This document shows, one piece after another, positions 9,440 to 20,133 of a stretch of DNA of 64,000 nucleotides. A program made the position numbers and the translations under genes. Origin of the DNA: a phage; the sequence record PZ386971.1. One strand, given 5' to 3'. Under the pieces are notes generated by a model. It was not told the DNA's origin and searched no databases. It was given only the letters and a program-made list of their open reading frames with translations. Within the stretch, counting starts at the first letter, position 1. Each line of letters opens with the position of its first letter.

Positions 9440-9452
9440 GGATATTTATATC
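9440..9452 (-). promoter_or_regulatory. T4-type late promoter (GATATAAATATCC on minus strand)
   Basis: TATAAATA core upstream of 9407 start. Confidence 0.5.
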
Positions 9453-9980
9453 ATGATAGAAATTTATTCTGACGGGGGTTCTAACCCGAAGACCAACCAG
9501 GCCGCAGGCTGGGCATTTGTCATCAGGCCAATAACGGGTATGCAATGGAAGGTGTTCTTCGGTCATCTACCTCCCCCGTCCACTAACAATATCGCCGAGT
9601 TGTTGGGTGTGACCAACGCATTGAAGCTACTGTGGGCATTCTCAGGAAAGGGTGAGCGCAGAATACCAAAGGCAACAATTTGGTCTGACAGCCAATATGC
9701 CATCAAGAGTGTCACCGAATGGCGAGCGAAGTGGGAGTATCAGGGTTTCCCAGAAAAGAACGTTGAACTCATCAAAGATCTGTTCAGAATCTATGATCTC
9801 GTTTGTTCAATTTGTGATGTTGAACTAAAATGGGTTAAGGGTCATGCGGGGCACGAAGGCAACGAACTTGCCGATGACTGGGCCACAGCAGCCAAAAACG
9901 ACAGCAACTTCCTGATTGAGAATGACAAGATCTCAGTGAAGAAGGTTGTTGGATCTTTTGATGAATTTATCGGTATCTGA
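9453..9980 (+). CDS. rnh: ribonuclease H (RNase HI-like)
   Basis: Motifs IEIYSDGG and HAGHEGNELADDWA; internal ATG. Confidence 0.8.
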   Translation: MIEIYSDGGSNPKTNQAAGWAFVIRPITGMQWKVFFGHLPPPSTNNIAELLGVTNALKLLWAFSGKGERRIPKATIWSDSQYAIKSVTEWRAKWEYQGFPEKNVELIKDLFRIYDLVCSICDVELKWVKGHAGHEGNELADDWATAAKNDSNFLIENDKISVKKVVGSFDEFIGI

Positions 9981-9991
9981 GGGCTTTCATA

Positions 9992-10783
9992 ATGGGAATG
10001 AACTTCGTGGACAGAGGGGAGAATGTCGTCAAATATTTCACGGACGAAGACAACGAGCGTGTCATTAGTATCCTTCGTGATTGGATCCCCGCCCGCAAGA
10101 AAGCACTTGCTGAGGGCACCAGGCTTCCAAAGATCCCCAACTATGTTGCTCTGCAGGTCCAGCGCATCATCACCAAGATGAGTACCCGCTACAACTATCG
10201 CGACTATCCCTTCCGTGAAGACATGGTCTCTGAAGCAATAGTCAACATCCTGCGCTACCTCCACACCTTTGACGTCGAACACATTGGAAAGAAAGGGAAG
10301 ATCAACTTCTTCTCTTGGGTGACCATGTGCGCTGATCGATCATTCGCTCGTAAACTGAATATCGAAGAAGAACACACGTACATCAAATTGCGCTCATTTG
10401 AAGAGGCGGGTGGGTTCGCAGGCCTGGCAGACGATCCCGACTTCCAACAAGAGATCTTTGTTGACGCGACAGGGATTGGTATGGACTTCCGTGAGCGTAT
10501 CGGTAACTTTGAGAACAAAAAGGACGCTCAAAGGCAGAAGGAGCGAGAGAAGGTGGAGGCGGCTCGTCTCGCAGAATCGAATAAAAAGATTGCGAAAGGC
10601 ATACTTCAATACATGGCGCAGGCTAAGAATACGGTAACAGCGCAGGCCGAAGACAATTCAGATCAGGACTTTGGCAAAACCCAATTCAATCTGGAAGATG
10701 ATATCTGTGCGATGGAACCAGATTGGGAAGCCCTCAAACAAAGATTAGAAGAACGGGAGAAAAAGAATAATGGCGATTGCTAA
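9992..10783 (+). CDS. late-transcription sigma factor, T4 gp55-like, with C-terminal charged extension
   Basis: Block-wise similarity to recalled T4 gp55 (ILRDW, RYLHTFD, NFFSWVTMCADRSF). Confidence 0.6.
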   Translation: MGMNFVDRGENVVKYFTDEDNERVISILRDWIPARKKALAEGTRLPKIPNYVALQVQRIITKMSTRYNYRDYPFREDMVSEAIVNILRYLHTFDVEHIGKKGKINFFSWVTMCADRSFARKLNIEEEHTYIKLRSFEEAGGFAGLADDPDFQQEIFVDATGIGMDFRERIGNFENKKDAQRQKEREKVEAARLAESNKKIAKGILQYMAQAKNTVTAQAEDNSDQDFGKTQFNLEDDICAMEPDWEALKQRLEEREKKNNGDC

Positions 10784-11885
10784 AATCGGCGATCTGCATA
10801 TCGGGAGCCGTAATGGTTCCCGATACGTTCGCGACTTCATCAAGAACTACCTCATCAATTATTTCATCCCTGAACTTGTCGCCTCCGACATCCATGAGGT
10901 CTGGCAGTTTGGTGACACATTTGACGTCCGCAAATTCATGTACGGGCGTGACAAGGACTGGTTGAAAGATGAGCTGACTCCGGCGCTGAAAGCTGCTGGG
11001 ATCAAGTGGAATGGTATTGTTGGCAACCACGACATCACCCTGGAAGAGTCTAACCGCATCAACTGGCCATCCTACCTGAACGAACTCGACCCAGATGTAT
11101 ACTGCTATTATAGCGAACCGACCGAAGTGATGATCGAGGGTGTCAAGACTCTGCTCCTACCGTGGATCAACAAGGAGAACTATGATGCGTCTATTAAGGC
11201 GTTACAAGATACAGACGCCGAGTACTGTTTTGCGCATCTGGAGTTGGCAGGGTTCAAAATGTACCAGTCCTCTACTTGTGATCACGGTCAGATCGACGTT
11301 GCGTTGCTTTCCAAGTTTACCAGGGTCGACACGGGGCATTTCCATACCCGTTCGATGGAAGGTAACATTCAGTATCTTGGGACTCCGTATCACCTGAACT
11401 GGGAAGACTACAAAGATGGCACCAACCGTGGCTTCTATGTGGACGACATGCGCGGCGGTGAGGTATTCATTCCCAACAGCGAGCACCAGACGTTGTTCCG
11501 CTATGTGGAATATGATTACACCAAGTTGTCCTCAGACGATGAGGGTAACTGGATCGACCCGGAATGGTTGAACACAGGCTTGGGTATTGAAGGGCAAATC
11601 GTTAAGGTTATTGTACAGAATCGCGACAATGCTAAGCATTATGAAAAGTTCTGTGATGCAATGAAGCGATGCAAGTGTATTGACTACAACTTCATCGACC
11701 GGACTATTACCGTAGCGGCTGAGAAGGTTGAGGTCACCGAAGAGATGGTGGCAACCGACGCAGTGGAAGTCCTAAAGAAGGATATCCGCGCCGGGAACAA
11801 CATCCAGCGCCCTGAAAACGTCTGCAAGCTAGCAGAGCACTTCTACAACGCTGCCCAACAACGCCTGAATACACTGGATGCATAA
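10770..11885 (+). CDS. recombination nuclease subunit gp47 (Mre11/SbcD-like phosphoesterase)
   Basis: Metallophosphoesterase motifs GDLHIG, GNHD, GHFH. Confidence 0.85.
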   Translation: MAIAKIGDLHIGSRNGSRYVRDFIKNYLINYFIPELVASDIHEVWQFGDTFDVRKFMYGRDKDWLKDELTPALKAAGIKWNGIVGNHDITLEESNRINWPSYLNELDPDVYCYYSEPTEVMIEGVKTLLLPWINKENYDASIKALQDTDAEYCFAHLELAGFKMYQSSTCDHGQIDVALLSKFTRVDTGHFHTRSMEGNIQYLGTPYHLNWEDYKDGTNRGFYVDDMRGGEVFIPNSEHQTLFRYVEYDYTKLSSDDEGNWIDPEWLNTGLGIEGQIVKVIVQNRDNAKHYEKFCDAMKRCKCIDYNFIDRTITVAAEKVEVTEEMVATDAVEVLKKDIRAGNNIQRPENVCKLAEHFYNAAQQRLNTLDA

Positions 11886-11886
11886 C

Positions 11887-14223
11887 ATGACTCAAAGTAC
11901 AGATATCCTGGCCAAATTTGGCAATCTTTTGAAGGAAGCTGACACCCCGGTAGAGGTGGAAGTCCCATTTGAAGTGCGTGATAACGTTACGCACAAACTG
12001 ACTTTCCGCAAAGGTCGCGCCAAGAACTTCCGCTCCATCGGCAATCAGTTCATGGAGATTGATTATCAGCGCAACCCAGCCACCCTTGTCACGTCTGATG
12101 ACAACGGCGCGGGTAAATCCACGATGTTGGTATGGCTGCTGTTCTTCGTACTGTACAACACCACGTACAGTAAGAAGGAGAAGAAGGCAGGCCTGGTTAA
12201 CTCACAAAGCCGCAAGGAATGTGTGGGTGAGGTAGAGTTTGCCTGTCGTGGTAGTGAATGGAAAGTTCGCCGGGGTATCAAGCCCGACTTTGTTGAAGTC
12301 TACCAGATGGTGGACGGTAAGTGGTTGCAGATCGATAACGAAGCAGCCAAGGCCGACATGAACAAGTACATCGTGAACCTCATCGGTGTAGACCAGAAGA
12401 TGTTTGAGAACTCTCTGGTGCTGGGTAAAGAGAAGTTCATTCCGTTTACGGAGATGTACACTGCCGACCGTCGCGCCATGGTGGAGACAATTTGGGACTT
12501 GGGCTTCTTCAGCCTGATGAACGAAGATGTCAAGGCCGCCATCAAAAAGGCAAATACAACTCTGGACTCCATATCTAACGAATGCGCACTGAAGGTTATT
12601 GACCACACCAACAAGAAGACGCAGCTTCAGCAGATCGAGCAATCCAACGCCCTGATCCAACAGCAGTCGGCCGATATCCTTGTACAGCAACAGGAAGCCC
12701 TGAATTCCCTGGATGCTGACATCGCTTCCCAGAACGAAGAGCGCAGCCGCCTCACTGCGGTTGAGTTCGAAGCCACCCAGGAAATGAAGACGGTAGAAAA
12801 CCGCCTGAATGATGAATCCATGGTGGAGATCGAGGCTATCAAGAAAGACTTTGATGCCAAGATCCAGGCGGTGAAGGATGCCGCTCAGGAAAAGGCCGAT
12901 GATTATGAGCGCATCGAAGTGTCTACTGCGGAGCATGAACTTCAGGTCTTGCGTGACCGTGCCTTTACAGTGGCCGAAAGCAAGAACACCCTGCTCACCG
13001 AGCGCAACACAAACCTGGACGCCCTGAACGCTGCTATTCAGCGCCGCCAGCAGGGTGAGAACTTCCGCATCAAGTTCCAGACCGAAATGGACGGACATCA
13101 GTCGGCCATCAAGCGCTTCCACGACATGGGGACTTGCCCTACCTGTACCCAACTGGTGTCTGATGACACCAAGGCGCGGATTGAGAGTGAGTACAATCCT
13201 CAGATCCAGGAACTGCAGTCGAAGTTAGATCAACTAGACAAAGTTACCGCCGATATCAATGTCCTGATCGATGATCACAAGGCTCAGGACGATAAGTTGG
13301 TTGCTGACATTGCTGTGTTGGACACTGAACTGGATGCAATGCGCAAGCAGGCTGACGAAATCGTTGACAACATCAAGCAGCTGCGCCGTGATATTCAAGG
13401 TTTTCATGATGCTGCCACGATTGAGTGTAATTCACTGAACCGTGAATGTCAACAGAAGATCCTTGACATCCGTAAGGCACTGAACGTTCGTTTTGAAGAC
13501 ATCACTGCGTCACTACAACAAACTCGAGAGAATGCCGTCAGCGGGATTAAAGCCGTCGATGATAAGATCGCCGAGCTGAAAGCCCGTCGTGCTCCTCTCG
13601 TGGCGTCTATTGCCGATCTGGAGCGTAAACTGGCTGTACAACCAACGCCTACCGCCGAACTAGAGAACTCTATCGCTGTGTTGGAAGGTGAACTGGAGGA
13701 TCTATACCAGCGCCGCGAGGATGCCGATCAGGAACTCCAGGACTTACAGCACCTCCTGTTCTTCCTGAAGGATGACCAGACCAAGGCGCGTATCATCGCC
13801 CTGTATCTGCCATTCCTCAATAGCAAGATCAACGAGTATCTTGAAGCCCTCAACATGTTCTTGGACATCGTTGTTGACGATACCTTTGAGATCACCATGA
13901 GTGCAGCAGGCCGCAAGGGGCAGAGTATCTTCTCCCTGTCTACTGGCCAGCGGAGCCGCCTGAACCTGGCGGTGACATTAGCTCTGCGTGACGTGGCTAA
14001 CCTCAAGGCATCAGTGCAATGTAACCTGTTTGTCCTGGATGAAATCCTTGAGAACATGAGCGAGCGCGGGGTGCAGGAATCGGTTGAGATGCTGAAGCAT
14101 AAGTTCGGCGGGAACAACCTGTTTGTCATCAGCCAGCGTGAGCAGGAGTTCCAGGAATACTTCCAACACAACATTCGCTACGGCCTACGAAACGGCCTGA
14201 CCGAAGTTATCAAGAAGGATTGA
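11887..14223 (+). CDS. recombination ATPase gp46 (Rad50/SbcC-like)
   Basis: Walker A DDNGAGKST, long coiled coil, CPTC zinc hook, Walker B LFVLDEI; alternative ATG at 11878. Confidence 0.85.
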   Translation: MTQSTDILAKFGNLLKEADTPVEVEVPFEVRDNVTHKLTFRKGRAKNFRSIGNQFMEIDYQRNPATLVTSDDNGAGKSTMLVWLLFFVLYNTTYSKKEKKAGLVNSQSRKECVGEVEFACRGSEWKVRRGIKPDFVEVYQMVDGKWLQIDNEAAKADMNKYIVNLIGVDQKMFENSLVLGKEKFIPFTEMYTADRRAMVETIWDLGFFSLMNEDVKAAIKKANTTLDSISNECALKVIDHTNKKTQLQQIEQSNALIQQQSADILVQQQEALNSLDADIASQNEERSRLTAVEFEATQEMKTVENRLNDESMVEIEAIKKDFDAKIQAVKDAAQEKADDYERIEVSTAEHELQVLRDRAFTVAESKNTLLTERNTNLDALNAAIQRRQQGENFRIKFQTEMDGHQSAIKRFHDMGTCPTCTQLVSDDTKARIESEYNPQIQELQSKLDQLDKVTADINVLIDDHKAQDDKLVADIAVLDTELDAMRKQADEIVDNIKQLRRDIQGFHDAATIECNSLNRECQQKILDIRKALNVRFEDITASLQQTRENAVSGIKAVDDKIAELKARRAPLVASIADLERKLAVQPTPTAELENSIAVLEGELEDLYQRREDADQELQDLQHLLFFLKDDQTKARIIALYLPFLNSKINEYLEALNMFLDIVVDDTFEITMSAAGRKGQSIFSLSTGQRSRLNLAVTLALRDVANLKASVQCNLFVLDEILENMSERGVQESVEMLKHKFGGNNLFVISQREQEFQEYFQHNIRYGLRNGLTEVIKKD

Positions 14224-14225
14224 TC

Positions 14226-14390
14226 ATGAACTACGAACAAATTAAACTCGCAATCCTGGTCTTTGCATGCATCATTGATATCGTTGCGTTTTCTCGTGAA
14301 GTCGAAAGGAAAAACTACCTGAAAGCACTGGGGTATCTCGGGTTCTCTGTCTGGTTCTGTTATCTACTTGCAGGTCAAATCCTGAAATGA
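14226..14390 (+). CDS. small membrane protein (54 aa, not in ORF track)
   Basis: ATG overlapping gp46 stop; hydrophobic helices; stop overlaps next start. Confidence 0.4.
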   Translation: MNYEQIKLAILVFACIIDIVAFSREVERKNYLKALGYLGFSVWFCYLLAGQILK

Positions 14391-14716
14391 AAGTCGTCCA
14401 CTTCAAGAAGGAGCCATATGATGTCTACATTGGTCGGCCTGGTAAATGGGGGAACCCGTTTGAGGTCAAAGACCATGGACGAGGCGTCTGTATCGAACTG
14501 TTTGAGGACGACCTGTATGTGCGCCTGATTGAAGGGGATATCACTGAGGATGAACTCCTTGATCTTGACGGGAAGGTATTGGGGTGCTGGTGTAAGCCGC
14601 GCCCCTGCCACGGAGATGTTTACGTCAAAGTCGTCGGGCGTATTAAACTATTCCGCAAGCTGGGCAAATCCTTTACTGAACATCTGAGACAAACGTATGT
14701 CAGAAAACAAAGATGA
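14387..14716 (+). CDS. DUF4326-like protein (GRPGKWGNPF ... CWCKPRPCHGD)
   Basis: Recalled DUF4326 signature motifs. Confidence 0.55.
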   Translation: MKVVHFKKEPYDVYIGRPGKWGNPFEVKDHGRGVCIELFEDDLYVRLIEGDITEDELLDLDGKVLGCWCKPRPCHGDVYVKVVGRIKLFRKLGKSFTEHLRQTYVRKQR

Positions 14717-14981
14717 AATTCAGGAATCCTGTGACATTGCTGTGGAGATATGGAATCGCAGGAATCCTCATTACCAAGTGACCGTCACTCCGAATCGTTA
14801 TCTTGAGCAGGGCGGCCTGATTGTGGTTGATGCTGTACTCGCTTTCAACAAGTACCAAGATATGCAGATCCTGGACGGCAACTTTACCGTCGCGACCAAT
14901 ACGGCATGGGATGACCCTCTACAGTTCGTCTATGGCTGGCTGGAGTGTATCGAGGAATCCTACCACCTCATCTACGAATGA
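14697..14981 (+). CDS. hypothetical protein (94 aa)
   Basis: ATG ORF overlapping upstream gene by 20 nt. Confidence 0.4.
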   Translation: MSENKDEIQESCDIAVEIWNRRNPHYQVTVTPNRYLEQGGLIVVDAVLAFNKYQDMQILDGNFTVATNTAWDDPLQFVYGWLECIEESYHLIYE

Positions 14982-14989
14982 GGCTGAAG

Positions 14990-15021
14990 GGCACTAAATA
15001 CCACGTGCCCTTTATCTTTTA
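14990..15021 (+). terminator. hairpin terminator with TAAATACC in loop
   Basis: GGCAC ... GTGCC stem then CTTTATCTTTT; loop matches late-promoter core. Confidence 0.5.
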
Positions 15022-15080
15022 ACCCCTGTCAGGAGGCTCAAGCGAGCTGCAAGTCGACAAACCACATAAGGAACGCCATC

Positions 15081-15695
15081 ATGACGATGACAACGTTGAA
15101 GGCCATGGCCTTGTCCGTGACCTTTACCATTGCCAGCGGGAATGTGCACGCTTCCCAAAATACAAGTCAATGTGTTTATGATTTCTCTGAGCAACAACTT
15201 AATACGATGGCAACCGCCTATCACGTAGGCAAGACACAAGATCTTGGCTACACTCTGGCCGCCATATCTTGGCGAGAGAGCCGCGCTGGTGAAGATGTAG
15301 TGTCAATGCGATACGGCCTCAAGGCGGCCAACATGGGAGCCTTCCAGAACAAGGTGAAGACAGTTGGTGATCGCGAAGGTTGTAAGAATCGCAAGTGCTA
15401 TGCCAATGTCGCCATAAAGTTGCTGACCGACCAAGAATATGCCGCGCAAGCCGCCCTCGATGAGATACAGTTCTGGCTGACCTATCACAATCAGAATATC
15501 CGCAAATCCCTCTCCTCTTACAATGCTGGCTTCGCCCGTAATCCCGCATCGAACGCTTATGCTGCTGACGTCGTGAAGAAAGCTAAATATCTTCAGAAAT
15601 GTGTGTCTTTCGAAGGCCGGACCATCTCCGAGGTAGATCCTCAGGTGATCGCCATGAACAAGCACACAATAGAGAAACTGAAGAGGACAAGATAA
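15081..15695 (+). CDS. periplasmic lytic transglycosylase (SLT domain) with signal peptide
   Basis: Signal peptide; SLT motifs SWRESRAG, GAFQ, YNAGFAR. Confidence 0.6.
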   Translation: MTMTTLKAMALSVTFTIASGNVHASQNTSQCVYDFSEQQLNTMATAYHVGKTQDLGYTLAAISWRESRAGEDVVSMRYGLKAANMGAFQNKVKTVGDREGCKNRKCYANVAIKLLTDQEYAAQAALDEIQFWLTYHNQNIRKSLSSYNAGFARNPASNAYAADVVKKAKYLQKCVSFEGRTISEVDPQVIAMNKHTIEKLKRTR

Positions 15696-16333
15696 TGAAC
15701 ATCACTCCATCTCAGGCCGGATATGAACATATCTTGGTCTTCATTGCTCTACAGGGTGCGAAGGAAGGCATCATCGTATCCGAGTACTCAGGCACGGTTC
15801 GCCTTGCCGATTATGTCGCACCAGAGGCATTTATCAAGAAGTGTATTGACGCATGGTGCCTCTATGCCCTCGGCACGTATCCTGCTCCTCCTGATGGCGA
15901 GCTGTTGTTTACTGTGCCGACTCCGGCTGCTGGCGATACGGACGCGATCTTTGCCGATATGCTGGCCAAGGGGTATCTGGTGTATGACATCACCCACGAT
16001 GTCTACTCCTTTACTTCGCTGAACACCGTGTTTGGATTCACCATCACATCTGAAGCCAACATCCCTGACTGGGGTATCTTGGCATGGGGTGTTGACGGCC
16101 TGGGTGCAACCTACGCATCGTCTGACGTCGGTGCAGTTCTGATTGATGAGGGTGTCACCATGGAGCAGTACCTTGCCCAGTTCCCTCAGCACAATATCAC
16201 AGGCAGCGACATCATTTTGGTCCAGCCTGGCGCTATCGCTCTCCCCCGTTTGGTGGATGGATGGAATCCTCGGCTGAAGGACATCATCGCAGGTATTCGA
16301 TCCCACATTCCGATTGTGAATCCGACGCCGTAA
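15695..16333 (+). CDS. hypothetical protein translationally coupled to the SLT gene
   Basis: TAATG overlap; internal ATG of track ORF. Confidence 0.45.
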   Translation: MNITPSQAGYEHILVFIALQGAKEGIIVSEYSGTVRLADYVAPEAFIKKCIDAWCLYALGTYPAPPDGELLFTVPTPAAGDTDAIFADMLAKGYLVYDITHDVYSFTSLNTVFGFTITSEANIPDWGILAWGVDGLGATYASSDVGAVLIDEGVTMEQYLAQFPQHNITGSDIILVQPGAIALPRLVDGWNPRLKDIIAGIRSHIPIVNPTP

Positions 16334-16362
16334 AATAATTCAATAAAAGGGGCTTTTGCCCC

Positions 16363-16391
16363 TTTACTTCTTCAATATCCTTCCCTATACT
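16363..16391 (+). promoter_or_regulatory. early promoter TTTACT-N17-TATACT
   Basis: Promoter family member after hairpin AAAGGGGC ... GCCCCTTT. Confidence 0.5.
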
Positions 16392-16439
16392 TCATTCCAT
16401 AAGCAACACAACACCAACTTGAAAAGCAGGAACTACACC

Positions 16440-16715
16440 ATGAAAATTATCCTCGACGCATATATCCGCCACGGTCAGAAATACCTGATGGCCAAGGTTT
16501 ACGACGGCGAAGAATTGATCCACGCCCAGACCGCCCCAGCTGCCCAGCTGCGAGAAATCATGTCACGCGACTTCCCTGGTGTTGAAATGGTAGAGCCTAC
16601 CAACCAGGCCGAAGTAGACAAAGAGTGGGAGCGCGAATGGAGTCCAGCGGCTATCGCTCGGGCTGAAAAGAATTGGTCTAACCGCGAAAACGCAAACCGC
16701 CCTTTCCGCCGTTAA
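16440..16715 (+). CDS. hypothetical early protein (91 aa)
   Basis: ATG after conserved leader AGGAACTACACCATG. Confidence 0.45.
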   Translation: MKIILDAYIRHGQKYLMAKVYDGEELIHAQTAPAAQLREIMSRDFPGVEMVEPTNQAEVDKEWEREWSPAAIARAEKNWSNRENANRPFRR

Positions 16716-16737
16716 TTTGAACCGAAGGAACTATATC

Positions 16738-17073
16738 ATGACACAACTCAAGAACTTCACCGCCGATGACATGTTTGCCTTCCAGGGTGCTGAGCACTTT
16801 GCTGACGGCTCCGTACCTCGCATCTACTACTTCTCCGACGAAGAAATGGAAGATTTCTTCGCCCTGATGGAAAAGGACTACGAACCAGACGACTTCGTTT
16901 ATATCATCCATCACGCCGAAGGACTGACATTGGGCTGGACGGCCAACAATGAACCAGAAGAAGTAAACTTCCCTGAAGGTATCATGTCAGAGCGCGTCGA
17001 ATATCTACTGGAAGCCCTGGACCCCCACACCCTCCCGCTCTGGGCGATGTCTGTAGCCCAAGTTCAAAAATAA
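16738..17073 (+). CDS. acidic small protein (111 aa)
   Basis: ATG after conserved leader AGGAACTATATCATGAC. Confidence 0.45.
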   Translation: MTQLKNFTADDMFAFQGAEHFADGSVPRIYYFSDEEMEDFFALMEKDYEPDDFVYIIHHAEGLTLGWTANNEPEEVNFPEGIMSERVEYLLEALDPHTLPLWAMSVAQVQK

Positions 17074-17148
17074 GATAAGGGGGCTGACGCTCCCTTTTGG
17101 TTTCGCTAATTAGAAGAAACCGCCGTTAATTCAATCAGGAGATATAAA

Positions 17149-20133
17149 ATGTCAAAGCCAAGTTTCCTCCAGTTCATGCAGGAAAGAGATCAGTTGGACG
17201 AAGCGTTCAACTCCGCTCCGTATGAGCTGACCATGGGTAAGAAGAACGCAGGCGATGTGTTCTTCACCTTCGTCGACGAAGATGATAAGGAATACCGCAT
17301 TCAGTTCTATACTCCTCAGGGACTGGGCAAGAGCGTTCGTCAGGTTTTCATCGGCCAGAAGCGCGGCTCCGTCTATCCTGACGCCATCGCTCGCTTCAAG
17401 AACCCAATGCGCGTTATTGCTTCCATGATCGAAGCGACCAAACAATTCATGGCGACTCCTCTGGGCAAAACTATCGATGGCTATGCTGTCAACTTCTCGA
17501 AGAAAGCGCTGGATCGCGGTATGACCCTGATTCCTAAGATCATCCGCCAGTCCGGTCTGAAGCAGAAACTGAATGTCATGGACCTGACCTACGCGCCTGT
17601 CCCTGACCGTGGTTATGTGTGGCTAGTTCGTAAGGGCAAAGATCCGGCTCAGGTATTCGACGGTCCGAAGATGCAGGGTATCACCTGGGATGATCCAGAC
17701 AAGGTCGGTGACGTTCCGGTTCAGAACAATACTCCGGATGTGGGTGTGTCATCTTCTGTTGATAATTCCAACGGATGGAAATTAACTTCAAACGGGGATC
17801 AGCCCATGTTGATATGGGCTGGTAAGGAGAGAGGCCGCACGAATACGGCAAATATCGCTCCCCACTACAATGAGCCGGGCGTGTATGTTGGCGCATACAT
17901 GAATGAGAAACCTGTGCGTGGGCAAAGTGCTGATTTCATTGCTCGTCAGTTGAAATTACCACAAGTCCCTATCAGTATCCTGAATGATTTCACCACGGCG
18001 TCCACAAAATTTTGGAAAGGTTCTCAACAGAAATCTGCGCCTGTTGTGCCGGCAGGTTCGGACAGAAATAACCCAGCCAACATTATCGGTTCTGGAACTG
18101 CTGTTATTGATGCCAAACGGCTTGGTGCTCAGGAAGTAAACGTGGAACGATTCAAAAACGGCGTTCGCATGCGTTCTCGAAACGGTGACGTCGACATCAG
18201 TATTTCTGACCCAGACTTTTCAAATGCAGCAAGTGCGGCTGATGCTGCCACAGCCTCTGTTGTGGTCAAGAACGGGCGTTACGAAGGTGCCATCAATTCA
18301 AAGCGCAAGATTGCCCGCACCTCGAACGAGCAGGGTACTGAATGGGATATTATCGGCGTCAACGGGGAAATCCTTGTCTCTATCAAGTTGAACAAAGTGT
18401 CTAAATCCACATCAGATTCGACCGAGGGTGCAACCAGTGTTGATCAATTACGTGACAGCGGTTTCATCGCTCGTGTTCTGGGTATCATTGATACCAACGT
18501 TGGGCTGGACACTTCTATTCTTCCTGGTGAAAACATCCGTCGCGTGGGCGCTGGTCGTTACACGACGACAGGCGGGTTGGTTATCGTTGTCAACTTCACA
18601 AACGTCCTCGCTGGTTTCGTTCAATACTCAGTTTTCAGCGAAATTGCTGAAGAGGAGAACGTGGCCAAAGGTAGCGCCCGTGACGTCGCCAAGGCGGTAA
18701 TTGCGTCCATCTTTGAGGTTGCTAAGACCCAGTACACTGGCAAATGGGAAATTAGCGCAGTGCCAACAAGCGCTCCATATCCTATCAAAGCCATTCGCCG
18801 TTCTCGGGGCTGGGGTTATGTGGAAACCGCAAACTGGACTCTGACAGTGTCCGACGCTGTCCTGAATCGTGTGAAGCCAGGGAACACTGCTCTGCTGGAA
18901 CTCATCAAAGAGCCTCCGCGTGGCAAGCACCTGCTGGAAATCATCCCAGAGAAGGGCGACAAGACCCTGATGCTGAAAGATCGTATTACCGGGGCCATCT
19001 ATGGTTCTATCGACCTGAATGCCCAAGGCGCTGATCTGGTCAACTCTGGAACCCTGAAGATACCAAGCAACGCCATGGTGTTTGGTGAGACTGTCAACGG
19101 TATGTCCATTCGGTGGGATGTCAATTTCCCCGAAACGGGAAAATACGCCGGTACTTCTATGATAACCAACGTGACCTATTACTACGACAAAGGTAAAGTT
19201 GCATTCACCCCAATTGTCTCTCAGAAAGGGCGTACCCTGAACAATCCGAAGACATATGAACTTCCTTTAAACAAAGATATGGTCCAGAGTGTGATTGATG
19301 AGATTTCATCAAAAATGGTATATCTTTCCAGAAACCTCCAACAGTTGAAAAGTCAGTCATACAACCCAAACCAGGTGTTCTTGAACGATATAACCATCAC
19401 GGATAAAGGTGAAGTGATTTGGAATGATTACAACTTGTCTGACGGCAAAGTTACACAAATTATGCTGTCCATGATAAGCGCAGAAAATAAACGCCTGGAG
19501 AAAGTAGCAAACACGCCGGATATCAATATCACATTGCCCAAGAAACAAGCTGAAGTGGTAGAATTTATAAACCGGATGATCGACATCGATCTCACCCCTT
19601 ATGTGAGAACCCCCAAAAAACGTGATGTGGTATTATTTGACTCTTCTGAATTGTCGATAAACCAACTCAACAACATAGAACGCCTGGGAAGAGAAACAGG
19701 AAAATGGTCTCTTCAGCCAAACGGTGGTATGGGTCATGCACTACTTCTGAAAAGCACGTCGCACAATCCGAAGGACGACCTTGCGGCATACGCCGACTCC
19801 ATTCGCGACAACGCACCAAAAGGTCGCGACCTGGATTGGCAGATCTATGCAAGCCGTGATGGTCAGACTCTGAACGTGGACTGGGATATCACCTTCCGCC
19901 GCAACACAACTGAAGGGGCATATCGCGAGTTCAAAGCTCAGATTGACCGCGCCAACCAGTACCTGCAGACACTGTACCGGGATGCGAAGTCCAAGGGTTA
20001 CAACCCGACTGAACCAAACCTGATGACTCTGGCTCGCGCCCAGCAGTCTGACCAGTGGTCACAAGACAACGGGGAAAGCGCATACAGCGAGTACGAGCAG
20101 TCCCTGGGTGGCAACATGCAGATTAAGATCTGA
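17149..20133 (+). CDS. large hypothetical protein (994 aa)
   Basis: Long uninterrupted ORF; no recognisable catalytic motifs. Confidence 0.6.
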   Translation: MSKPSFLQFMQERDQLDEAFNSAPYELTMGKKNAGDVFFTFVDEDDKEYRIQFYTPQGLGKSVRQVFIGQKRGSVYPDAIARFKNPMRVIASMIEATKQFMATPLGKTIDGYAVNFSKKALDRGMTLIPKIIRQSGLKQKLNVMDLTYAPVPDRGYVWLVRKGKDPAQVFDGPKMQGITWDDPDKVGDVPVQNNTPDVGVSSSVDNSNGWKLTSNGDQPMLIWAGKERGRTNTANIAPHYNEPGVYVGAYMNEKPVRGQSADFIARQLKLPQVPISILNDFTTASTKFWKGSQQKSAPVVPAGSDRNNPANIIGSGTAVIDAKRLGAQEVNVERFKNGVRMRSRNGDVDISISDPDFSNAASAADAATASVVVKNGRYEGAINSKRKIARTSNEQGTEWDIIGVNGEILVSIKLNKVSKSTSDSTEGATSVDQLRDSGFIARVLGIIDTNVGLDTSILPGENIRRVGAGRYTTTGGLVIVVNFTNVLAGFVQYSVFSEIAEEENVAKGSARDVAKAVIASIFEVAKTQYTGKWEISAVPTSAPYPIKAIRRSRGWGYVETANWTLTVSDAVLNRVKPGNTALLELIKEPPRGKHLLEIIPEKGDKTLMLKDRITGAIYGSIDLNAQGADLVNSGTLKIPSNAMVFGETVNGMSIRWDVNFPETGKYAGTSMITNVTYYYDKGKVAFTPIVSQKGRTLNNPKTYELPLNKDMVQSVIDEISSKMVYLSRNLQQLKSQSYNPNQVFLNDITITDKGEVIWNDYNLSDGKVTQIMLSMISAENKRLEKVANTPDINITLPKKQAEVVEFINRMIDIDLTPYVRTPKKRDVVLFDSSELSINQLNNIERLGRETGKWSLQPNGGMGHALLLKSTSHNPKDDLAAYADSIRDNAPKGRDLDWQIYASRDGQTLNVDWDITFRRNTTEGAYREFKAQIDRANQYLQTLYRDAKSKGYNPTEPNLMTLARAQQSDQWSQDNGESAYSEYEQSLGGNMQIKI

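Follow-up and report, generated by a model that had tools for sequence, protein, structure and literature searches.

An exchangeable slot for membrane mini-proteins ahead of a DUF4326 gene in an Agtrevirus-like phage

Immediately downstream of gp46, in a 64-kb stretch of phage DNA (hereafter the window), two short genes are packed so closely that a first-pass annotation suggested that they are functionally tied to the recombination genes. What do these two genes encode, and does their packing reflect a shared function? The source phage is a member of the Ackermannviridae and is Agtrevirus-like, and positions 14226–14716 form part of a dense co-directional block of DNA-metabolism genes (gp55-like, gp47, gp46 onward). 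The reading that we favor, with a probability of roughly 0.55, is that the second gene encodes an accessory DUF4326 Cys-enzyme, that it is coupled by reinitiation to the gene ahead of it, and that the latter encodes an independent, swappable membrane mini-protein. The features of the locus are as follows.

11878–14223, + strand: gp46, an SbcC/Rad50-like recombination nuclease subunit, the upstream neighbor (phrog_77, E 6e-163; Pfam SMC_N, E 1e-10)
14226–14390, + strand: 54-aa two-helix (hairpin) membrane mini-protein, slot allele "A" (phrog_34593 over its full length, E 2.5e-40)
14387–14390, + strand: ATGA stop/start overlap of the slot gene and the DUF4326 gene (read directly from the sequence)
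14387–14716, + strand: 109-aa single-domain DUF4326/NrdA.1-family protein (Pfam PF14216, E 3.1e-23; phrog_464, E 7e-46)
14432–14461, + strand: N-terminal motif GRPGKWGNPF, residues 16–25 (alignments A1 and A3)
14585–14617, + strand: putative active-site strand-loop-helix CWCKPRPCHGD, residues 67–77 (alignments A1 and A3; AlphaFold2 model)
14697–14981, + strand: 94-aa ORF of the same gene block, the downstream neighbor, overlapping the 3' end of the DUF4326 gene by 20 nt (phrog_4165, E 6e-50)

Identity and coupling of the two genes

The 109-aa protein had been placed in DUF4326 on the strength of two motifs, and a profile search confirms the assignment: PF14216 is matched at 82.6 bits (cut-off 25), over profile positions 3–80 of 82, and both motifs are present in the ORF. 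In the 322-position phrog_464 profile the protein aligns to positions 193–311 only. Residues D12, R17, G22, N23, C67, C69, P71, C74, H75 and G76 are invariant in alignment A1 (57 sequences), and C67, C69, C74, H75 and G76 are invariant also in the more diverse alignment A3 (60 sequences); every family-invariant residue is present in the window protein. With a dN/dS of 0.04–0.12, the gene is under strong purifying selection. Over 2,100 phage records contain DUF4326/NrdA.1, those of T4-like phages among them, and the window protein is 100% identical to the "NrdA.1 protein" of Escherichia phage LHE287. Two antisense ORFs, 14375–14611 (78 aa) and 14272–14406 (44 aa), were dismissed since the strong purifying selection sits in the plus-strand frames.

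The small membrane protein proposed ahead of DUF4326 is real as well. It possesses two hydrophobic segments, at approximately residues 6–22 (nt 14241–14291) and 34–53 (nt 14325–14384), with a maximum Kyte-Doolittle value of 2.62 in a 17-residue window, and AlphaFold2 predicts a hairpin of helix (3–27), turn and helix (31–53) at a pLDDT of 88. Its ATG at 14226 is preceded at 6 nt by an AAGGA Shine-Dalgarno sequence (14215–14219) contained in the final codons of gp46, and the same start is found in relatives. The description of this gene as unannotated is true of the window's ORF list, which has a default minimum of 60 aa, but LHE287, Ag3, A221, AV101 and other phages have it annotated. Both genes are already known: public relatives with 96–100% identity label them "NrdA.1" and "putative membrane protein", and dozens of deposited, near-identical phage genomes have both annotated. 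To this extent the finding is an ordinary one.

A 54-aa ORF is short enough to arise by chance in an intergenic spacer and never be expressed as protein, and this one has only five close cluster matches in the protein database and no Pfam match; in PADLOC and NCBIfam, both proteins and their neighbors returned only noise. Its evolution, however, is that of a coding gene: dN/dS is 0.2–0.35 among close alleles and 0.23 at a dS of ~1 between the diverged Dickeya and heyday alleles, and the hydrophobic two-helix pattern is retained at 43–50% identity. Moreover, the start codon is an ATG with a good Shine-Dalgarno sequence, the PHROG match is full length, and the ORF fits precisely into the space from gp46 to DUF4326, its start/stop coupling being conserved. 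We therefore regard a chance origin as exceedingly improbable.

At the 3' junction the DUF4326 start overlaps the mini-protein stop as originally described, the ATG at 14387–14389 and the TGA at 14388–14390 being read as ATGA. The corresponding claim for the 5' junction does not hold, since the gp46 stop (TGA 14221–14223) and the ATG at 14226 are 2 nt apart. An overlap there would need an alternative TTG start at 14220. No Shine-Dalgarno-like sequence is found within 15 nt upstream of the DUF4326 ATG, and because it has none of its own, DUF4326 probably relies for its translation on termination-reinitiation from the slot gene. The coupling would then concern expression and not shared function.

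An exchangeable slot between gp46 and DUF4326

The interval from the stop of gp46 to the start of DUF4326 is a recombinationally exchangeable slot. Its occupants in relatives fall into at least five allele classes of 53–57 aa, all with two hydrophobic segments and with little or no detectable similarity; the slot can also hold an optional 102-aa soluble (basic) ORF or be empty, as it is in Klebsiella-type loci. Allele B has a borderline match to the window allele (E ~0.004–0.016 in a 13-sequence database). Every occupant keeps the 4-nt ATGA/GTGA overlap with the DUF4326 start. Allele type is independent of phage genus, allele C for example occurring both in Agtrevirus MK-13 and in loci with a gp46 of 71% identity to that of the window. 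The contrast between slot and flank is clearest against Dickeya phage Ds25CZ, for which dN is 0.03 in DUF4326 and 0.51 in the adjacent mini-protein.

The first-pass annotation made its reading depend on whether related phages keep the two genes together; only a minority do, a homologous 54-aa protein being present in 38 phage records as against ~271 Ackermannviridae records with the DUF4326 gene. Outside the Ackermannviridae, a small transmembrane ORF was found upstream of DUF4326 in 2 of 47 loci, both times on the opposite strand (background 22 of 673), and the pairing of mini-protein and DUF4326 is thus not general.

Allele C occupies the same position as the window gene and is annotated as a holin in Maynard, EP75 and MK-13, which raises the possibility that the 54-aa protein is itself a holin or lysis-timing protein. 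To our knowledge, the "holin" labels on slot alleles are predictions from transmembrane content only. The small size and two transmembrane helices of the 54-aa protein would suit a holin, allele C matches the "holin" family phrog_35473, and an SLT-like secreted protein is encoded ~700 nt downstream. The window allele, on the other hand, belongs to phrog_34593, where function is given as unknown, and bears no similarity to allele C; searches of Pfam and NCBIfam likewise gave no homology to a characterized holin family. The gene belongs to the gp46 early/middle block, and no late-promoter motif lies within ~5 kb, the TATAAATA motifs closest to the locus being at 9443 and 20158, and promoter/terminator sites are not in excess across 9500–17500. 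Its absence from most relatives, including the Klebsiella-type loci that have no slot gene, cannot be reconciled with the role of an essential lysis gene, and the family's recognized endolysin has its annotation in another part of the genome ("peptidoglycan binding protein" in the phiSH19 table). For these reasons we rejected the holin assignment as very unlikely.

Most likely the mini-protein is a factor of its own, swapped rapidly, that would interact with the host or with competitors, for example of the superinfection-exclusion type. This proposed role is based on how small the protein is, on its topology, on its place in the early operon and on the turnover of alleles. A more elaborate proposal is that the slot may be a dedicated diversity cassette, refilled by horizontal exchange across Ackermannviridae genera; if the constant 4-nt junction is more than packing, the mini-proteins could be fast-evolving superinfection-exclusion or anti-defence specificity modules whose dosage would be tied to the DUF4326 enzyme beside the SbcCD-like nuclease. 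We consider this proposal doubtful; were it true, the cassette and a DUF4326 enzyme acting on phosphorylated nucleotide, ADPr or DNA-end substrates would together form a small module for counter-defence or DNA ends that has so far gone unrecognized. In its own right, the swappable slot illustrates cleanly how cassettes are exchanged at a fixed junction, and it could serve for questions of superinfection exclusion and host range.

Gene order and the recombination genes

Might DUF4326, with or without the membrane protein, work with gp46 and gp47 (SbcCD/Mre11-Rad50-like), for instance as a phosphatase cleaning up DNA ends ahead of recombination-dependent replication? The order gp47-gp46-slot-DUF4326 is kept in all 22 of the Ackermannviridae loci examined, and the genes are co-directional and translationally chained. 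DNA-metabolism genes are also neighbors of DUF4326 elsewhere, N6_N4 methylase (6), AAA_25 (4), Metallophos (3), RecA (2) and Toprim (2) being found among 150 neighboring proteins. In addition, Burroughs and Aravind are said to have predicted DNA-end processing in 2023 for some members of the DUF4326 clade, which would be in keeping with such a partnership.

Beyond the Ackermannviridae this arrangement disappears. No credible gp46/47 neighbor was found in any of 60 more distant viral DUF4326 loci, 58 of which have no adjacency at all and two of which have only weak 26% matches, and in T4-like phages (RB14) nrdA.1 sits in the td-nrdA cluster. Within the family, DUF4326 has been independently deleted or truncated in loci L017, L021 (Klebsiella phage May) and L023–L025, in all of which gp46 and gp47 are full length, and the intervening slot is freely exchanged or empty. 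Tight packing is moreover common in the window genome: the gap is 5 nt or less at ~29 of 75 co-directional junctions, nine of them of the ATGA type, as delimited by a rough ORF caller. On the other side of DUF4326, the 94-aa ORF is syntenic across the Ackermannviridae, and in some members it is replaced or has diverged to 39–46% identity.

The proposed functional link to the recombination genes is accordingly not supported; DUF4326 follows gp47-gp46 only within the Ackermannviridae and has been lost in several isolates with intact gp46/47, so that what remains is a gene order conserved in one phage family. A working partnership with gp46/gp47 we judge to be distinctly improbable. The natural deletion alleles show that the phage survives loss of the DUF4326 gene, and the role of this gene would be that of a dispensable host-interaction or counter-defence factor, not of a core recombination component.

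Predicted chemistry of DUF4326 and comparison with known systems

The AlphaFold2 model of the 109-aa protein (pLDDT 95.6) is mostly helical, with three short strands only. Around the Cys motif it comprises a strand (64–67), a loop (68–75, WCKPRPCH) and a helix (76–91). A Foldseek search of BFVD returned 30 matches at E ≤1e-3, essentially all of them DUF4326 (best TM 0.92/0.96, rmsd 0.7), and the predicted fold is that of other viral DUF4326 members; one match is labelled DUF2493, and another is described as "NADAR domain with protein tyrosine phosphatase". Against the PDB, the best Foldseek match had an E of 4.3 and a TM of no more than 0.26, with no rhodanese, PTP or RapZ structure, a search that may overlook strongly reduced versions of the rhodanese-phosphatase fold. 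Sequence searches of the PDB with the protein, and profile searches with A1, gave only noise (E ≥0.5).

DUF4326 has been assigned to the rhodanese-phosphatase superfamily by Iyer, Burroughs and Aravind, phosphate-processing chemistry has been predicted computationally for the family in print, and the partners in published fusions are ADPr- and nucleotide-processing enzymes. The literature searched yielded no biochemical or genetic data for any member. In our own comparisons, all of them below the level of significance, 14 of 60 DUF4326 members share the same sub-threshold Pfam match, in the same register, to PF22751 DUF488-N3a (best E 0.0018), as against 4 of 60 for the next most frequent family. 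The window protein itself has no PF22751 match, and hhalign of A1 against one E. coli YeaO (DUF488) sequence gave no signal, a comparison of low power (A1 Neff 2.2).

The genomic context of DUF4326 elsewhere is mixed. Ten long DUF4326 ORFs, some of them possibly over-extended, contained DUF4326 alone when scanned for fusion partners, with no Pfam-recognised Macro, SLOG or NADAR partner in the long ORFs sampled. A census of 47 distant viral and ~28 cellular/MAG loci showed no Macro/NADAR/SLOG enrichment and no dominant family; the neighbors are heterogeneous DNA-metabolism genes.

Four invariant potential metal ligands, three Cys and one His (C67/C69/C74/H75), lie within 9 residues, and DUF4326 could on this account be a non-enzymatic zinc-binding module that binds nucleic acid or protein and regulates or targets in early infection. 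The small, mostly helical protein of the model would fit such a module, as would the failure of Foldseek and PDB searches to match known enzyme folds and the frequent occurrence of DUF4326 as a C-terminal add-on domain, the part of phrog_464 to which the window protein aligns. D12, R17 and N23, however, are polar, invariant and distant from the Cys cluster, suggesting a composite active site; the recurrent remote similarity is to a clade that Pfam labels "Active DUF488-N3 subclade", and the published fusions are to enzymes that process ADPr and nucleotides. A purely zinc-binding role seems to us unlikely.

DUF4326 is most likely a small Cys-dependent enzyme that would process phosphate or ribosyl-phosphate groups, within a RapZ-C/DUF488/DUF4326 branch of the rhodanese-phosphatase superfamily. 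The predicted active site would combine D12, R17 and N23 with the loop of the strand-CWCxPxxCHGD-helix unit. Its candidate substrates are molecules derived from nucleotides or ADP-ribose, or the ends of nucleic acids. A phage with easy genetics would suit a test of either predicted role, phosphate processing or counter-defence.

Compared with known systems, the modelled DUF4326 protein resembles DUF488 (PF22751, "active DUF488-N3 subclade")/RapZ-C in its strand, Cys-containing loop and helix, and in the C...CH signature. DUF4326 departs from the rhodanese-phosphatase superfamily in that its sequence matches remain below significance, no solved structure is matched, and the CWCKPRPCHGD loop is without the canonical CX5R arginine of Cys-phosphatases. 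To the T4-type NrdA.1 (RB14/T4-like nrdA.1) the window protein is 42% identical over residues 2–86. T4-like phages place nrdA.1 between nrdA.2 and nrdA, whereas the window phage places DUF4326 after gp46, and relative to Pfam DUF4326 and T4-type NrdA.1 the Ackermannviridae protein has ~25 additional C-terminal amino acids, residues 80–109 lying beyond the Pfam match and the model showing a helix at 96–108.

For the mini-protein, the closest counterparts are Shigella phage Ag3 orf00117 and the LHE287 "putative membrane protein" (phrog_34593), 54-aa proteins 92–100% identical to it, with the same position and overlaps; there is no material difference, and the window copy is another allele of a deposited gene. 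The Salmonella phage Maynard/MK-13 "holin" and alleles B, D and E share with it the slot, the length of 53–57 aa, the two-helix layout and the ATGA coupling, but the window allele has no detectable sequence similarity to the Maynard/MK-13 allele or to D and E. The T4 Imm-type superinfection-exclusion proteins are small, early, non-essential proteins of the inner membrane with two transmembrane helices. Their resemblance to the 54-aa protein would be a functional analogy only, with no homology detected by PHROG or Pfam.

Annotation and layout of the gene block

The genes between 10770 and 16333 are all encoded on the plus strand and are closely packed. The first-pass annotation described a 54-aa membrane protein (the mini-protein) followed by a 109-aa DUF4326 protein, and the sequence bears out the coordinates and lengths that it gave, the two motifs and the ATGA overlap. 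The further overlap that it reported between the mini-protein ORF and the gp46 stop is wrong, as this would require an alternative TTG start at 14220.

Genes and terminator-like elements of the block (window positions)
10770-11885, plus strand: gp47/SbcD-like (phrog_100, E 3e-106)
11878-14223, plus strand: gp46/SbcC-like (phrog_77, E 6e-163); stop TGA 14221-14223
14226-14390, plus strand: 54-aa ORF; ATG at 14226, 6 nt past AAGGA; TGA 14388-14390
14387-14716, plus strand: 109-aa ORF; ATG 14387-14389, overlapped by the TGA of the 54-aa ORF
14697-14981, plus strand: 94-aa ORF (p94)
15081-15695, plus strand: SLT-like 204-aa ORF
15692-16333, plus strand: DUF7270 protein (full-length match, E 1.4e-111)
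16342-16368: terminator-like G+C-rich hairpin, then a T-run
17077-17096: terminator-like G+C-rich hairpin, then a T-run

Roughly 39% of the co-directional junctions of the window overlap or are separated by no more than 5 nt. The two hairpins flank small ORFs (16440-16715 and 16738-17073) and are the first sites past the gp47-to-DUF7270 block that could plausibly bound a transcript. T4-type late promoter motifs (TATAAATA) occur only three times in 64 kb, at 9443 (minus), 20158 (plus) and 39480 (minus), and neither tRNA genes nor Rfam families above the gathering score were found across the 64-kb window.

The interval 13800-15100 matches 272 phage records. Escherichia phage LHE287 shares 97.8% identity with it, and a set of phages of Escherichia, Enterobacter, Yersinia and Shigella shares 93-97%; within this set, the taxonomy lines of EspM4VN and MK-13 read Agtrevirus (Ackermannviridae). 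Public records already contain and name both genes, as 'putative membrane protein' and 'NrdA.1 protein' in LHE287 and as 'hypothetical membrane protein' (orf00117) and 'NrdA.1' (orf00116) in Ag3, and NrdA.1 was listed beside a recombination endonuclease subunit in the 2011 phiSH19 paper (PMC3220722). The claim that the mini-protein is unannotated thus holds only against an ORF list that applies a length threshold, and the description of the pair, though accurate, is ordinary.

Several labels in related records merit comment. In LHE287, the closest public genome, the gp47/SbcD-like gene (L001:2971-4086) is called 'cell division trigger factor', likely a mis-annotation given its phrog_100 match. 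OR844944.1, 'Enterococcus phage Efm 3-10' (38.5 kb, without annotation; matches H20 and H46), shows 85% nucleotide identity over this stretch of enterobacterial Ackermannviridae DNA, its mini-protein being 96% identical to that of the window, and is probably mislabelled or contaminated. The N-terminus of the 204-aa protein (MTMTTLKAMALSVTFTIASGNVHA) resembles a signal peptide, and the protein's SLT lytic-transglycosylase match falls below threshold (E 6.6e-4, 19.7 bits against 21.3); its homologues are variously labelled 'RegB', which looks doubtful, 'membrane-bound lytic murein transglycosylase F' or hypothetical. The record of phage heyday calls the DUF7270 protein a 'putative structural protein', and a note there refers to an 'unknown structural protein' of Dickeya virus Limestone. 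Since the DUF7270 and SLT-like genes directly abut, their products may form a pair associated with the virion.

An exchangeable slot upstream of DUF4326

The mini-protein is matched end to end by phrog_34593, and its five cluster matches in a large protein database come only from close relatives (four full-length at ≥85% identity, one a 31-aa fragment). It occurs in 38 phage records, 26 at >90% identity and 12, from Dickeya Limestonevirus and some Kuttervirus, at 42-50%. AlphaFold2 models it as a helical hairpin. The ORF is under purifying selection, which speaks against its being spurious, a reading we regard as extremely improbable.

Related phages carry alternative proteins in the slot between the gp46 stop and the DUF4326 start, and allele type crosses genus lines.

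Occupants of the slot
Allele A: 54 aa, the mini-protein of the window
Allele B: 57 aa, 40 records
Allele C: 53 aa, 9 records
Allele D: 53 aa, Serratia
Allele E: 56 aa, Klebsiella, 4 records
102-aa ORF: very basic, soluble (phrog_4651), alone or beside a mini-protein, 137 phage records
Empty: Klebsiella-type loci L014-L016, gp46-DUF4326 gap of 14 nt

The 102-aa ORF is the commonest occupant (L002:3038-3346, L005:3526-3834, L007:3696-4004) and is absent from the window. Similarity to allele A is borderline for allele B and undetectable in the sequences of alleles C, D and E. That allele C occupies the same slot and bears the label 'holin' in the records of Maynard, EP75 and MK-13 favours a holin reading of the mini-protein, which we nevertheless consider very improbable; the mini-protein is more probably an independent membrane-targeted factor interacting with the host or a competitor.

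Divergence of the window from Dickeya phage Ds25CZ rises abruptly where the two genes meet, with dN of 0.03 in DUF4326 and 0.51 in the mini-protein. DUF4326 identity is 88-94% whichever allele, or none, precedes it, which speaks against physical partners that co-evolve. The end of each occupant overlaps the DUF4326 start as ATGA or GTGA, and DUF4326 lacks its own Shine-Dalgarno sequence; the coupling therefore appears to be a device for expression that was kept at a recombination junction, and is no evidence of a specific partnership. Some relatives (L010:4311-4679; also L011, L012, L015 and L016) have a further ORF inserted between DUF4326 and the 94-aa ORF, which encodes 122 aa with an HELSH (HExxH-like) motif and explains a ~350-bp insertion in two-piece BLAST matches.

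Recombination genes and natural loss of DUF4326

The order gp47-gp46-[slot]-DUF4326-p94-SLT-like-DUF7270 is constant in 22/22 Ackermannviridae loci, as expected if DUF4326 were a true DNA-end-processing partner of gp46/47, but DUF4326 has been lost through separate deletions in several isolates that keep full-length gp46/47, and we judge such a partnership quite unlikely.

DUF4326 loss alleles (three different ones, from sequenced Ackermannviridae genomes in IMG/VR records)
L017:3990-4270: deletion joining the 102-aa ORF start to DUF4326 near codon 30
L021:4001-4223 (Klebsiella phage May): internal frameshifting deletion
L023-L025:3993-4129: remnant of residues 67-109 only

DUF4326 is thus a dispensable, accessory gene. 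These alleles amount to natural knock-outs, a mildly interesting by-product of the analysis; the exchangeable mini-protein cassette is a second.

No credible gp46/47 homologue lies within 4 kb of DUF4326 in any of 60 more distant viral loci. The neighbours there are mixed DNA-metabolism genes (150 proteins from 47 loci, called with our own ORF caller: DNA methylase 6, AAA_25 4, Metallophos 3, RecA 2, Toprim 2), and among some 28 loci from cells or MAGs no neighbour family recurs. T4-like RB14 has the genes in the order td, nrdA.2, nrdA.1, nrdA, with junctions that also overlap, so that an argument from tight coupling would make ribonucleotide reductase the partner. The functional link to the recombination genes proposed from that coupling is, with the losses, not borne out, and it fails likewise on the first-pass annotation's own test, conservation of the gene pair, the slot being mosaic or empty in relatives.

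DUF4326 as a putative enzyme family

The 109-aa protein is a DUF4326 member, as first proposed from its motifs (PF14216, E 3.1e-23, 82.6 bits against a cut-off of 25; phrog_464, E 7e-46). The search of the large protein database gave 1,829 homologues, the best 120 of these all single-domain and mostly 83-130 aa, and by tblastn 2,161 phage records contain the domain, T4-like phages (nrdA.1) among them. Conservation is enzyme-like: V4, D12, R17, G22, N23, L60, L65, G66, C67, C69, P71, C74, H75 and G76 are invariant in a 57-sequence alignment, the Cys/His/Gly core remains so across a more diverse 60-sequence set, and dN/dS is 0.04-0.12.

The AlphaFold2 model is very confident (pLDDT 95.6, pTM 0.86). 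In it, residues 2-5, 13-14 and 64-67 form short strands and residues 27-30, 32-49, 54-58, 76-91 and 96-108 form helices; the CWCKPRPCH loop lies between strand 64-67 and helix 76-91. A non-catalytic zinc module seems unlikely. We favour a putative Cys-dependent phosphate- or ribosyl-phosphate-processing enzyme of a DUF488-related lineage, which might act on nucleotide or ADPr-derived molecules or nucleic-acid ends and have an accessory role in counter-defence or host takeover.

Foldseek against the PDB gave no match (best E 4.3), nor did PDB sequence and profile searches. Against predicted viral structures it returned DUF4326 proteins only, from phages, archaeal viruses and giant viruses; some of these are longer and bear the labels DUF2493 and 'NADAR domain with protein tyrosine phosphatase'. 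Sub-threshold Pfam matches to PF22751, 'Active DUF488-N3 subclade', recur in 14/60 DUF4326 sequences (best E 0.0018) and, where checked, align on the C-terminal strand-loop-helix; every other family appears in at most 4 of the 60. As an independent check, these matches support, without proving, assignment to a RapZ-C/DUF488/DUF4326 clade. Burroughs and Aravind reportedly defined this clade in 2023 and predicted sugar-phosphate and DNA-end processing activities for it. Our literature search found no experimental function for DUF4326 members, and a functional prediction for the family is already published. Iyer et al. (2021) describe DUF4326 as an enigmatic, probably enzymatic domain, and in amoeba viruses it occurs in fusions with homologues of ORF83, an anti-Avs protein predicted to be an AMP phosphoribohydrolase (2025 preprint).
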